Below are positions 59,092-62,780 of a DNA stretch of 64,000 nt, piece after piece. The position numbers were made by a program, and so were the translations under genes. The notes beneath the pieces are model-generated. The model was not told where the DNA came from and ran no database searches. It saw nothing but the letters and a program-made list of their open reading frames with translations. Position 1 is the stretch's first letter. Each line of letters starts with the position of its first letter. The stretch comes from an uncultured delta proteobacterium (GTDB lineage Bacteria; Desulfobacterota; Desulfobacteria; Desulfobacterales; JAFDCJ01): assembly GCA_963769935.1 (NCBI GenBank), contig CAVYNY010000010.1, positions 256,001-320,000 of the forward strand, in the 5' to 3' direction.

Positions 59092-59170
59092 TTTTGCAAT
59101 ATATTAAAATCTGCAAAATTTTTCTTGACATATGAATGATTATAATTGCAATATAAAATATCTTGCAATT
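59092..59170. promoter_or_regulatory. Two palindromic operator-like sites, TTGCAA-N11-(T/C)TGCAA, in the divergent promoter region
   Basis: TTTTGCAA-N11-CTGCAAAA (59092-59118) and AATTGCAA-N11-TTGCAATT (59144-59170), with TTGACA between them. Confidence 0.55.
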
Positions 59171-59198
59171 AATATTTCAGAAAAGGCAAAAGATTATC

Positions 59199-59954
59199 AT
59201 GCAGAATATCAACCTCCCTACCAACATCGTTGCCGACGACCGCGAACGCAAAAGCGACGTAATTGAATCCCTCTTGGAAATCGAGAATGTTAAAGTGGAT
59301 ATTAAGCGACTTTCTATCGGCGATTATCAGATTAACAATCGCGTGATTGTAGAAAGAAAGACATTAAAGGATTTTGCAATATCGATAATTGACGGAAGGC
59401 TTTTTAAGCAAATGATTTACCTGGCAAATTCCAAGGCTGAAGGTGTATTGATTCTGGAGGGTACGACCGGCGATACTGTCGATATCGGAATGACAAGGGA
59501 AGCCATGCAGGGAGCGCTGATTACAGTTTCCTTGATAATGGGTATACCGGTCCTGCGATCCGGGAACCCTGCTGAAACGGCTAAATTAATTATCTTTATC
59601 GCCCGCCAGATAGATTCGATGGCCAGCGGCGGGGTGCAGCGGCACGGCTATCAGCCTAAAGGATTGCGCTACAGACAACGTTATATTTTGCAGGGATTGC
59701 CTAAAGTCGGTCGTGAGAGGGCAGATCGACTTCTGGATCGTTTTGGCAGTGTTGAGGCCGTCATTTCTGCCGGCATTGACGATTTGCAAACCGTAGACGG
59801 TATCGGAAAAAACATTGCCGAAAAGATCAAATGGGCGGTAAGCGAACGTGTGCCCCCAAGTTCTAACAAGTCATTTGAATCTGAGCCGAGTTCAGTAGAA
59901 ACAGTATCAATAGGAGGCGCAACCCATTATTGCCGATACTTCACAGGAGCATAA
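59199..59954 (+). CDS. ERCC4/XPF-domain nuclease with helix-hairpin-helix domain
   Basis: DDRE, GDY, VERKT..DF..SIIDGRL and LEG motifs; HhH motifs GLPKVG and VDGIG. Confidence 0.88.
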   Translation: MQNINLPTNIVADDRERKSDVIESLLEIENVKVDIKRLSIGDYQINNRVIVERKTLKDFAISIIDGRLFKQMIYLANSKAEGVLILEGTTGDTVDIGMTREAMQGALITVSLIMGIPVLRSGNPAETAKLIIFIARQIDSMASGGVQRHGYQPKGLRYRQRYILQGLPKVGRERADRLLDRFGSVEAVISAGIDDLQTVDGIGKNIAEKIKWAVSERVPPSSNKSFESEPSSVETVSIGGATHYCRYFTGA

Positions 59955-59956
59955 TT

Positions 59957-60778
59957 ATGAATCAATCTGACGGTTTCATCGATCCTCACGGTGGGTTTCG
60001 AGAACTCAAGTCGTATCAAATGTCGGAAATTGTCTATGACGCCACCGCGGCGTTCTGCGACCGCTGGATCAGCCGCCGCTCCCGCACCCATGATCAAATG
60101 GTGCAGGCCGCCCGCAGCGGCAAGCAGAATATTGCCGAGGGCAGCATGGCCTCCGGCACATCCAAAAAGACTGAAGATGCCTCAATGTTGCAAAAGCCGG
60201 AGGGCTTCAGAGTCAAGGCGCCAAGGGTGAAGCTGTAGTTGTCTACCGCAATCCCTTGACAACGCAGAATCTGAAGTCCTCCTGGTTTCCCGCAGGGTAA
60301 ACAACATGGCAAAATCGACACTATCCATTGAATTTACTGGTCGGAAATTATGCAGGAAATGGTTCCTATGAATCAAGTCGGTTTTAATAACAAGACATTA
60401 ACTATTCTTTGCCATGTTGTTTATGCAACTTTGGGGCTGAAACTGGTCGGAGTGGCGCGCGCCAGTCTGGAAGAACTGCTGCTCGACTACCAGGATTTTC
60501 TGCGGCAGCGCAACCTGCCCATCTGGGGGAAAAACCACCCGCAAGCGCAAAAGATCAGAAGACTCGCCTTTCTGAAAAATAGGTCCTATACGACCTATAG
60601 GACCTATATTGAAGGCTCCTCCCCCGAAGTTGCCGCCAATGTGATGCTCTGTCTGATTCATCAGACCAACTTTTTACTGGATCAACAATTGCGGCAATTG
60701 GAAAAAAAATTTCTTGAAGAAGGCGGTTTCACCGAAAAACTTTATCTCACAAGGGTGAGGGCGAGACGCCGATTCTGA
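59957..60778 (+). pseudogene. Four-helix-bundle (23S rRNA IVS-like, suffix-domain) protein gene interrupted by a 261-bp insertion
   Basis: HGGFRELKSY...DQMVQAARSGKQNIAEGS.ASGTSKKTE | LKLVGVARASLEELLLDYQDFLRQR...FLEEGGFTE; the halves are in the same frame. Confidence 0.88.
60176..60436. mobile_element. 261-bp structured non-coding insertion (MITE-like)
   Basis: Removing it restores the host reading frame; terminal and internal inverted repeats present. Confidence 0.78.
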
Positions 60779-60848
60779 AAAATTACCCGGCCGCTTGCAA
60801 ATCTGGGATCAATCCTTTAATTGTGAGAAAAGTTTAGGAGGTCACGCC

Positions 60849-62780
60849 ATGTTAAAACAGCAGCTGCAGAAACATTTCGGGTTCAATACATTTTTAAAAG
60901 GCCAGGAAGCCGTCATCGACAAGGTGCTGGAGCGTCAGTCCGCGGCCGCCATCTTTCCTACCGGCGCCGGCAAGTCCCTATGCTACCAGCTGCCGGCGAT
61001 GCTGCTGCCCGGCATGACGCTGGTGGTGTCGCCCCTGCTGTCTTTGATGAAAGACCAGCTGGACTTTTTGCTGTCCAACAACATCCCGGCCGCGCGCCTG
61101 GATTCGACCCTTGGAAAAAGCGAATACAATGCAATTCTCGACCGCGCCAAAAGCGGCCAATTAAAGATCCTGATGATTGCGGTTGAAAGATTTAAAAATG
61201 AACGGTTTCGTTCCCATCTGGAAAAGATGAATGTCTCCCTGTTGGTCGTGGACGAAGCGCACTGCATCTCCGAGTGGGGGCATAATTTTCGGCCCGAATA
61301 TCTGAAGCTGCCGGATTACCAGAAAGAATTCAATATAGCCCAGACACTGCTGCTGACAGCCACTGCCACCGAGCAGGTTAGAGATGACATGTGCGCTAAA
61401 TTCGATCTACCTAAAGAAAATGTGTTTGTGACCGGATTTTATCGCAACAATCTTTTTCTGCAGGTTACGCCGACGGCCGCATCTGAAAAAAAGGACCGCC
61501 TGCTGCAAAGAATCCGTGAAGCTCCCCAGGACCCGACCATTGTCTATGTCACCCTGCAAAAAACGGCTGAAGACGTCGCAGAATTCCTAGGCGCCAATAA
61601 AATCAACGCGCATCCGTATCATGCCGGCATGGAGACGGAAAAACGGGAGGAGATCCAAAACAAGTTCATGGATGGGACCCTGGCCTGCATCACGGCAACC
61701 ATCGCCTTCGGGATGGGAATCGACAAAAAGGACATCCGCCGAATCATTCACTACGATCTTCCCAAATCCATTGAAAACTACAGCCAGGAAATCGGGCGCT
61801 CCGGGCGGGATGGCAAGCCTGCATTATGCGAGGTACTGGCCAACCGGGACAACATCCATGTTTTGGAGAATTTTATTTACGGCGATACGCCGGAGAAGCC
61901 CTCGATCCGCCAATTGCTGCAGACTATCAAAGAAAACAAGGGCTTTGTCTGGGAAATAAAAGCGACAGCGCTTTCAAACGACCTGAATATCAGAATCCTG
62001 CCGCTCAAAACCCTGCTGGTCTATCTGGCGCTGGAAAAAGTGATTCGACCCAAGCTGACCTATTTTGAGGAATATTCGTTCAAATTCAACACGGAGCCCA
62101 CCACGATCATCAACAGTTTCGAAGGAGAGCGCAAGCAGTATGTGGCCGCAATCATGGATCATTGCCACACCCGGAAAATATGGACCACGGCCGATATCCC
62201 GGCCATCCTGAACAGTTACAAGACTGACCGGCAGCGGATTATCGCGGCCCTGGAATACTTTGATGAGCAAGGCTGGATCGAACTACAATCCAAACAGGCC
62301 GTCGAAGTATACGATATTCTGACCCAGGCGTTTGATCTCGATGACATGGCCGAAAAAATGTATGCGTTGTTTAGAAGAAAGGAACGCGTTGAGATTCAAC
62401 GAATCCATAACATGGTTGGTTTTTTTGAAGGCGACGTCTGTATCAGCAGGCAACTGGCCCGATATTTTGGAGAACATCTTGAACAAGACCGCTGCGGGCA
62501 TTGTTCATTCTGTCAAAGCGGAAAAGCGGTTCTGCCAAACATCACCGAATTAAAACCGCTTTCAAATTTTAAATTCAACGAAATCACAAAGGAATTTATT
62601 CAAGCTGTCGGAGATCAGTTCAGCGCGGTAAATTTAGCCAAGTTTCTTTGCGGCATTTATACGCCTTTATTCTCGAAACTGAAGCTAAAGAAACTGCCGC
62701 ACTTCGGCATCCTTGAACGTTATCCTTTTTTGGACGTTAAGAATTGGATCGTGGATAAAACAGGAGCAAGACCTGCGTGA
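60849..62780 (+). CDS. recQ: RecQ-family ATP-dependent DNA helicase
   Basis: PTGAGKSLCYQ, VDEAHCISEWGHNFRP, ATIAFGMGIDK, QEIGRSGRDG and Zn-binding CGHCSFC motifs. Confidence 0.93.
   Translation: MLKQQLQKHFGFNTFLKGQEAVIDKVLERQSAAAIFPTGAGKSLCYQLPAMLLPGMTLVVSPLLSLMKDQLDFLLSNNIPAARLDSTLGKSEYNAILDRAKSGQLKILMIAVERFKNERFRSHLEKMNVSLLVVDEAHCISEWGHNFRPEYLKLPDYQKEFNIAQTLLLTATATEQVRDDMCAKFDLPKENVFVTGFYRNNLFLQVTPTAASEKKDRLLQRIREAPQDPTIVYVTLQKTAEDVAEFLGANKINAHPYHAGMETEKREEIQNKFMDGTLACITATIAFGMGIDKKDIRRIIHYDLPKSIENYSQEIGRSGRDGKPALCEVLANRDNIHVLENFIYGDTPEKPSIRQLLQTIKENKGFVWEIKATALSNDLNIRILPLKTLLVYLALEKVIRPKLTYFEEYSFKFNTEPTTIINSFEGERKQYVAAIMDHCHTRKIWTTADIPAILNSYKTDRQRIIAALEYFDEQGWIELQSKQAVEVYDILTQAFDLDDMAEKMYALFRRKERVEIQRIHNMVGFFEGDVCISRQLARYFGEHLEQDRCGHCSFCQSGKAVLPNITELKPLSNFKFNEITKEFIQAVGDQFSAVNLAKFLCGIYTPLFSKLKLKKLPHFGILERYPFLDVKNWIVDKTGARPA

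Follow-up and report, generated by a model that had tools for sequence, protein, structure and literature searches.

A four-helix-bundle gene within the 64,000-nucleotide stretch of DNA analysed here (the window) is interrupted by a 257-bp MITE with IS1380-type ends, and both halves of the alleles that carry the insertion (filled alleles) are intact and under purifying selection. A MITE inside a gene is usually assumed to knock it out. Here one insertion appears to persist across alleles as different as separate species, with the halves under selection and exact loss recurrent. Judged from the sequences, the gene may well work as two separately translated pieces that reassemble and are occasionally healed by recombination, a reading that we favour while holding it tentatively (Table 1).

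The insertion itself is genuine. Empty orthologues, sought in relatives, show exact SKK[T/F/I]E·LKL junctions (the dot marks the junction) with nothing inserted, bearing out the original prediction that removal of the block at 60176-60436 restores the gene; they are present in ten genomes of the genus and G086, and in 18 of 18 further genomes (in this set G014 lacks the N-half, and a weak match in G022 was left unread). Checked against the window sequence, every predicted motif lies at its given position: the closing stem at 60180-92/60424-36, arm 1 at 60199-211/60270-82 with an interior CAAGGG/CCCTTG and a GTAG-TTGT-CTAC tip at 60235-46, and arm 2 at 60298-313/60408-23. The block does comprise 87 codons with four in-frame stops and no transposase gene, and it is as foldable as had been claimed (RNA, -95.4 kcal/mol, z -6.3; DNA, z -6.7; both against shuffles). 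The CTGAA pentamers at its borders were rightly held not to be a target duplication, which consists instead of the 4-mers at the ends of the element: the right copy, CTGA, forms the first four bases of the C-half (from 60437), and the left four bases read GATG in the window and GATA in L235 and X15. The proposed 261-bp unit needs correction, in that the element proper spans 257 bp (60180-60436) and the bases at 60176-79 occupy the left target position. Its in-frame length is likewise true of the window but incidental, the insert of L235 being 259 bp long. Contigs from other sequencing runs bridge the left junction (X2 and X15) and the right junction (X1), and two metagenome contigs found by junction pattern carry the whole filled allele (L236, 261 bp; L235, 259 bp), so that a chimeric assembly is rejected. 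The window, L235 and L236 are the three filled DNA alleles that were fully read, and the remaining filled alleles are gene predictions.

Table 1 Features of the interrupted gene, its insertion and its neighbours (window coordinates)
Feature	Position	Strand	Basis
ERCC4/XPF-like nuclease gene, conserved upstream neighbour	59163..59954	+	Profile match, locus comparison
Four-helix-bundle gene, N-terminal part, 73 codons (helices 1-2 and first turn of helix 3)	59957..60175	+	TIGR02436 match, below cut-off on the half
Four bases where the left target-site copy stands (GATG in the window)	60176..60179	+	Unlike the right copy; family geometry
N-piece tail, 20 MITE-derived codons, ending CTG TAG	60176..60238	+	Equal length in 16/16 aligned filled N-proteins
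MITE, 257 bp, IS1380-type ends	60180..60436	+	Copy comparison, end match
Left terminal inverted repeat, outer 13 bp	60180..60192	+	12/13 bases shared with the right end of L093, an IS1380 element
Hairpin module, 105 bp (arm 1, CAAGGCG..AACGCAG core), inside the left inverted repeat	60193..60297	+	Absent from 150-152-bp copies
Left inverted repeat, inner 16 bp (5' strand of arm 2)	60298..60313	+	Motif check, fold comparison
Variable loop, A+T-rich, 34% GC	60314..60407	+	17-24% diverged between filled alleles versus 5-6% for the rest
Putative C-piece leader, 26 MITE-derived codons, starting at an ATG in the C-piece frame (translation inferred)	60359..60436	+	Shared 1-nt deletion
Right terminal inverted repeat, 29 bp	60408..60436	+	15/17 match to the ends of six 1.54-kb IS1380 elements
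Four-helix-bundle gene, C-terminal part, 113 codons (rest of helix 3, helix 4, suffix domain)	60437..60778	+	TIGR04258, above cut-off
RecQ-family helicase gene, conserved downstream neighbour	60795..62780	+	Profile match, locus comparison

By its profile matches the host protein belongs to the four-helix-bundle/23S rRNA IVP family (TIGR02436 with a TIGR04258 suffix); TIGR02436 scores below cut-off on the window N-half and above it on intact homologues. In this case the gene is the target of the element, not its cargo. The best Foldseek rows, PDB 2GSC and 2RLD, are weak (E 0.02-0.1), and a PDB sequence search with the host protein returned nothing useful. In the predicted model of an intact homologue (pLDDT 83; helices H19-37, H43-65 and H70-97), residue 73 is the last before the cut, which would fall four residues inside helix 3, close to the loop that links it to helix 2; the N-piece would then contain helices 1-2 and the C-piece helices 3-4. 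The gene lies in a cluster between an ERCC4 nuclease gene and a RecQ gene, both neighbours being present at 9 of 12 loci in the genus (window 59163-62780, L022-L033). In the window this cluster adjoins a type I restriction-modification region, named from translations. In the 80 bases preceding the junction (60096-60175), synonymous sites show unusually strong conservation, whether the allele is filled or empty, and a TAGGTCCTATA-type palindrome lies within the C-half coding sequence (window 60576-60610), a similar array occurring at C13:302750-302780 of the window's genome, G000. At L032 (G014:C885, reverse strand near 1609) the orthologue has lost its N-half through a deletion ending exactly at the junction, as an adjacent deletion by an element formerly at the junction would do.

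The MITE has no long open reading frame and encodes no transposase. Its right-hand 29 bp and its left end make up a single long inverted repeat, 13 bp in its outer part and 29 bp when the inner module is set aside, whose left copy is interrupted by the 105-bp hairpin module; the stop codon terminating the N-piece lies within this module. Copies of 150-152 bp (L197 and L165) do without the module and retain the target duplication. The three-way junction originally drawn for the block can pair as described, but it consists mostly of the long terminal inverted repeats with the hairpin module in the left one. Covariation is slight (term -1.33; 7 of 62 pairs in 15 sequences), and the insert has no match in Rfam, the best score of 18.9 bits being nowhere near the gathering score. 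A group I or group II intron was rejected, given that no Rfam ribozyme core is present and family copies avoid genes. Several copies (L019, L195 and L244) contain a REP-like palindrome of ~35 bp inserted at one shared position in the loop.

As predicted, the element is non-autonomous and multi-copy: copies were found in 35 of 61 genomes searched and in 22 of 22 of the genus, with three full and several partial ones in G000. Hosts named by the collection scan are mostly uncultured Desulfobacterales; copies are absent from the plasmid, phage and viral collections searched, and a loop-specific pattern gave no match in metagenome contigs. Of the 88 distinct full-length copies, the window copy and those of L235 and L236 among them, 53 are flanked left and right by the same 4-mer, compared with a mean of 10.8 and a maximum of 20 in 2000 shuffles. 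The commonest duplicated 4-mers are TTTA, TTAA and TAAA, the family targeting TWWA sites at large. Perfect duplication is seen in 16 of 19 copies having a close relative, and older copies show ~21-23% mismatch per base. The family makes an ordinary 4-bp target duplication that decays with age, and the window pair GATG/CTGA is one of four cases among the 88 copies that match at none of the four positions. The claim that no duplication accompanies the insertion holds at the window copy alone, as unlike 4-mers. Carry-over of donor flanks as a general rule was rejected, since young copies are perfect in 16 of 19 cases and mismatches grow with age. A reading frame open for 60 codons to either side surrounds only 4 of 84 other copies, versus 59% of 500 random sites, and with the other copies avoiding genes in this way RNA-level removal has no support for the family as a whole. 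The suspicion that the family is undescribed appears justified, no description having been found in the literature, ISfinder not covered. Two distinct copies, L068 and L212, have right flanks that are 99% identical and different left flanks, a pattern due either to misassembly or to recombination of one copy with another.

IS1380 elements have CC ends and produce 4-5-bp target duplications. A search with Pfam PF13701 was positive in 12 of 23 genomes of the genus, G000 not among them, and yielded six IS1380-family elements of 1538-1539 bp (1.54 kb) with ends like those of the MITE. The MITE right ends match these six at a mean best of 15.6/17 bases and a second IS1380 group at 11.6/17. The transposase of L093 scores 192.9 bits, versus the cut-off of 180 for the NCBIfam IS1380 model (NF033539). 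L093 is flanked by TAAA/TAAA; the other five, on short fragmented contigs, have unlike 4-mers. A transposase with the same ends, which the original prediction proposed to look for, is thus found in IS1380-family DDE elements of the same genus, with 15/17 bases in common. G000 holds an IS1380 remnant (C7:259214-259639) and no intact element, and among 119 right-end loci there was no autonomous element with the inner arms of the MITE, the loci lacking a left end being truncated copies. By analogy with MITEs generally, we infer that the element is mobilised in trans by an IS1380 transposase; such mobilisation is described in passages of PMC9330008, which also place ISEcp1 and ISPme1 in the IS1380 family (NF033539/PF13701).

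The mover first proposed, a HUH/RAYT- or IS110-type enzyme that shifts the whole 261-bp unit without duplication, is contradicted by the 4-bp family duplication and the IS1380 end match, and in G000, the one genome examined for this, the 11 Y1/HUH and 4 IS110 genes show a single isolated TIR-like match within 2.5 kb, which gives no link to the element. Ends matching an IS1380-family insertion sequence together with an ordinary family duplication (53/88 perfect) are what the original prediction had itself set against such a mover. The window copy does stand without a duplication, and the inner 105-bp module occurs in two MITE families 5' of TAAAC, also without one; a HUH origin is possible for the module alone, but for the whole unit we consider it highly improbable.

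No filled junction was found in the 22 other genomes of the genus, in 400 genomes of the order (right-end pattern; 11 other matches, all elsewhere) or among the best 18 class-level orthologues. Protein searches add 18 N-proteins with a MITE-derived tail and 16 C-proteins with a MITE-derived leader; the latter form at least ten clusters, recovered unchanged by a second query, and two of the filled N-proteins (P0011 and P0249) are frameshifted. The three filled DNA copies are mutual best matches among the 88 (87.5-90% versus at most 85%; tree support 0.72) and have a 1-nt deletion in common, and because of these two features we regard them as one lineage with a single origin at the site, likely one old insertion. 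The same lineage was not found at any other site among the 88 copies.

The filled alleles are nevertheless interleaved with empty ones. Their C-halves are as diverse as those of empty alleles (mean identity 0.82 versus 0.84, with a filled minimum of 0.74), readable C-half proteins numbering 311 empty versus 16 filled, and the filled alleles do not form one clade (AU p 2.7e-5, for 12 filled and 18 nearest empty proteins of our choosing). A quick tree with seven filled/empty changes, at least two of them forced, served as a guide only and is superseded by this 30-row test. Two filled/empty pairs, known as proteins only, are exact (P0242+P0255 = P0260; P0243+P0255 = P0146), and P0007 and P0252, on contigs of 68-109 kb, are empty and identical to the window N-half. 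Both of these have the same frameshift after NLP, which is genuine or else a long-read error. Most filled C-halves have no identical empty twin (6-15 differences), and the distance to the nearest empty protein has a median of 9 for filled and 7 for empty proteins. The residue two before the junction varies among T, I and F in filled as in empty alleles, and filled tails begin DA, DT, DP, EI, RT or RA. P0140 and P0262 resemble the window clade on both sides of a foreign junction patch, KKFE·LRLVS, which suggests healing by recombination. Slippage deletion was rejected, the junction having no microhomology and loss between the CTGAA pentamers causing a frameshift.

Both halves bear the marks of selection. 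Between the window and L236, dN/dS is 0.026 for the N-half and 0.097 for the C-half. The codons flanking the insert are those that recombination can refresh least: when the three filled DNA alleles are compared over the 20 codons on each side, 15 changes are synonymous and 1 is non-synonymous (P 7e-9), and within 7 codons of the insert the ratio is 8 to 1 (P 3e-4). The 65 conserved columns account for 4% of the pairwise differences among 14 filled C-proteins and 7% of those among 196 empty ones, versus 58% expected if the filled alleles were dead, and none of the nine differences between the filled sisters P0124 and P0127 falls in such a column. Filled alleles show no excess of change over empty ones (N, 0.53 versus 0.52, p 0.47; C, 0.86 versus 0.72, p 0.27). 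Within the element, the variable part of the leader diverges in step with the host C-half (Mantel rho 0.71, p 0.0002, in 14 of 16 sequences after two near-duplicates were dropped, kin among them not being independent), and its variable codons, with 4 synonymous and 13 non-synonymous changes, evolve neutrally. The arms are conserved at the DNA level, diverging by 5-6% versus 17-24% in the loop, where host dS is 0.24-0.85, and tail codons 5-20 show no synonymous change among the filled DNA alleles. A neutral pair of orthologous MITEs, which would have served to gauge the conservation of the arms, was looked for and not found.

On the split-gene reading that we favour, the MITE would have entered the gene where helix 3 begins, through an IS1380 transposase acting in trans, and produced a 4-bp duplication; of its two copies the left would drift and the right would be fixed as coding sequence. 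Ribosomes would then make a 93-aa N-piece, stopping at the TAG in arm 1, and the 1-nt deletion would put the ATG of the unstructured loop in frame, giving a C-piece of ~139 aa with a 26-aa leader; helices 1-2 and 3-4 would pair up again, and recombination with the commoner empty alleles would swap the junction and produce exact healed alleles. These steps are reconstructed from what is observed, namely the anatomy, the duplication, the IS1380 ends, the shared site, the selected halves and the interleaved empty alleles. The modelled position of the cut beside a loop is favourable to such a division, as is the analogy with the phage genes that MobA and MobE divide, the pieces of which have element-derived extensions. 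The in-frame loop ATG is present in all three filled DNA alleles and a comparable ATG in 8/88 other copies. The leader is open in 16 of 16 filled C-proteins, a figure obtained by a protein search that favours open leaders, and in the two alleles that a DNA pattern brought up; among the matches listed in two protein searches (120 each), none had a closed leader or a late start. The open leader frame alone was rejected as evidence for a split gene, an open 26-codon frame being common in the family (55/88 copies).

Several points tell against a split gene. Production of the C-piece is a prediction, its ribosome site is weak (AGGA one base before the ATG at 60359, too close for a canonical site), no + strand promoter match was found within the element, and the start varies, lying at an arm-2 ATG in 259-bp alleles, while P0131 has no Met at -26. 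Conservation of the arms at the DNA level is not explained by this reading, and the polyphyly of filled alleles together with the exact filled/empty pairs would need frequent switching.

Filled alleles could instead be dead, either because one MITE lineage is repeatedly re-inserted into empty alleles at this site or with flanks that recombination refreshes, the selection signal being borrowed from intact genes. The polyphyly of the filled set, the variation of the T/I/F residue, the similar nearest-empty distances and the great excess of empty alleles are all as such turnover would give. The codons touching the insert, however, are constrained, filled sister pairs such as P0124/P0127 differ almost only at variable columns, and the lineage is not found at other sites, the family otherwise targeting TWWA at large; we know of no targeting mechanism for such re-insertion, and judge dead filled alleles unlikely. 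A fairly unlikely alternative is a DNA-level switch, in which an IS1380 transposase in trans would excise the block and selection would act on the healed state: piggyBac-like 4-base staggered cuts would remove 4 bases and the MITE from the top strand, and religation would restore the gene. This geometry matches the block that must be lost for the frame to be restored (piggyBac chemistry as given in parts of PMC7351741), IS1380 serves as the piggyBac outgroup in PMC10813416, and the conserved ends and arm 1, the protein-identical filled/empty pairs and the empty P0007 and P0252, sharing the window N-half on long contigs, are in keeping with it. Yet the flanking 4-mers differ from each other and the left one is drifting, contrary to what clean excision would select for; a footprint allele with Asp at residue 74 is absent among 314 empty proteins, no filled tail begins with Leu as re-insertion would give, G000 has no intact IS1380, and no paper on precise excision of IS1380 was found in the literature.

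The block might also be skipped during expression, either bypassed by the ribosome or cut out as a folded unit with religation of the RNA, to give a full-length protein, which would account both for selection on the halves and for the conservation of the arms in DNA. A bypass would take off from the CUG that precedes the UAG in the hairpin at the tip of arm 1 (60233-38) and land on the CUG at 60437, a gap of 204 nt (202 in L235). The take-off codon, UAG and hairpin resemble those of T4 gene 60 as presented in part of bioRxiv 10.1101/2022.08.31.505936, and CTG directly follows the element as the next codon in 3/3 filled DNA alleles versus 3/10 empty alleles in the genus plus G086. Against this, the known gaps given in that part of the source are 27-55 nt, so that the present one is about four times longer; an earlier CUG stands at insert base 96 in all three alleles, and CTG-TAG at that place is a subfamily trait (16/88 copies). 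RNA removal is opposed by the want of any Rfam intron match and by the avoidance of genes by other family copies; moreover, the sole RNA-library contig with the left junction (X15) is unspliced, and a contig that skips the block (X16) differs at eight bases and is likely another strain's empty allele. Were either variant true, the fold would make this a self-removing domesticated MITE, driving a ribosome jump of ~200 bases (CUG-UAG to CUG) or an RNA excision; a transposon within a bacterial chromosomal gene would then leave the product whole, by the longest natural bypass or by a MITE-derived bacterial intron, an outcome that we consider unlikely.

Compared with known systems, the element resembles IS1380-mobilised MITEs in lacking a transposase, in TIRs matching autonomous elements of the same genus, in its short duplication and dispersed copies and in its internally deleted variants, and differs from them in the 105-bp hairpin module within the left repeat and in one copy being kept inside a selected gene. 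The split-gene reading has its closest parallel in phage genes, T4 gene 39/60 (MobA) and Aeh1 nrdA (MobE), whose pieces complement one another according to the part of bioRxiv 10.1101/2022.08.31.505936 concerned with them. On that partial account, a fixed site in a conserved gene, an element that supplies the tail of the N-piece and the leader of the second piece, and the coexistence of filled and empty alleles are common to both, whereas here the element is a gene-less MITE of DDE type in a bacterial chromosome, with no homing endonuclease; its leader amino acids are neutral and the function of the pieces is predicted only. Seamless piggyBac excision, as covered in parts of PMC7351741, has in common with the present case CC..GG ends, a T..A-rich 4-bp target and a geometry that removes the exact block, but there the flanking 4-mers must be identical for repair to be seamless, an identity lost at the present site, and the same chemistry for IS1380 is hypothetical. 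T4 gene 60 and the byps of yeast mitochondria likewise have a codon followed by UAG in the 5' arm of a hairpin, and a far codon that matches it, whereas the gap here is four times longer, an earlier matching codon is present and a 16-bp stem lies inside.

In the literature searched (few subscription papers, ISfinder not covered), we found no case of long MITE retention in a selected gene with repeated exact loss. The present family, an apparently undescribed IS1380-type MITE with a named partner transposase, is common in one Desulfobacterales group. Whichever mechanism operates, be it a split protein, an excision switch, re-insertion or recoding, the 822-bp locus is a small, clonable test case, and its natural cut point and filled/empty pairs that are otherwise identical would offer a handle on an unexplained four-helix-bundle family.

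Other repeats in G000 have parts in common with the MITE. A second MITE family with inverted repeats CCYTAATTGA.. has the same arm-1 module in the same place, 5' of TAAAC, with copies at C15:97508-97780 and C22:172449-172720 (right ends approximate), the former with a 5-bp duplication. The CAAGGCG..AACGCAG core recurs in two more families, the third being a palindromic one of high copy number (ends AGGGCTCACTC) and the fourth having GAAGTGGTTT, which occupy ~60 dispersed sites (for example C1:31637 and C3:101456). The genome has 78 matches to this core, which may form a module in its own right, either mobile or protein-binding. A 1781-bp cassette at C30:101094-102874 has IS1380-type ends and a perfect 4-bp duplication, contains no transposase and carries as cargo a 349-aa protein with a likely signal peptide. 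Finally, a 37-bp element composed of two IS1380-type ends lies at C7:158014-158050 and at ~30 other sites, with many solo ends besides.
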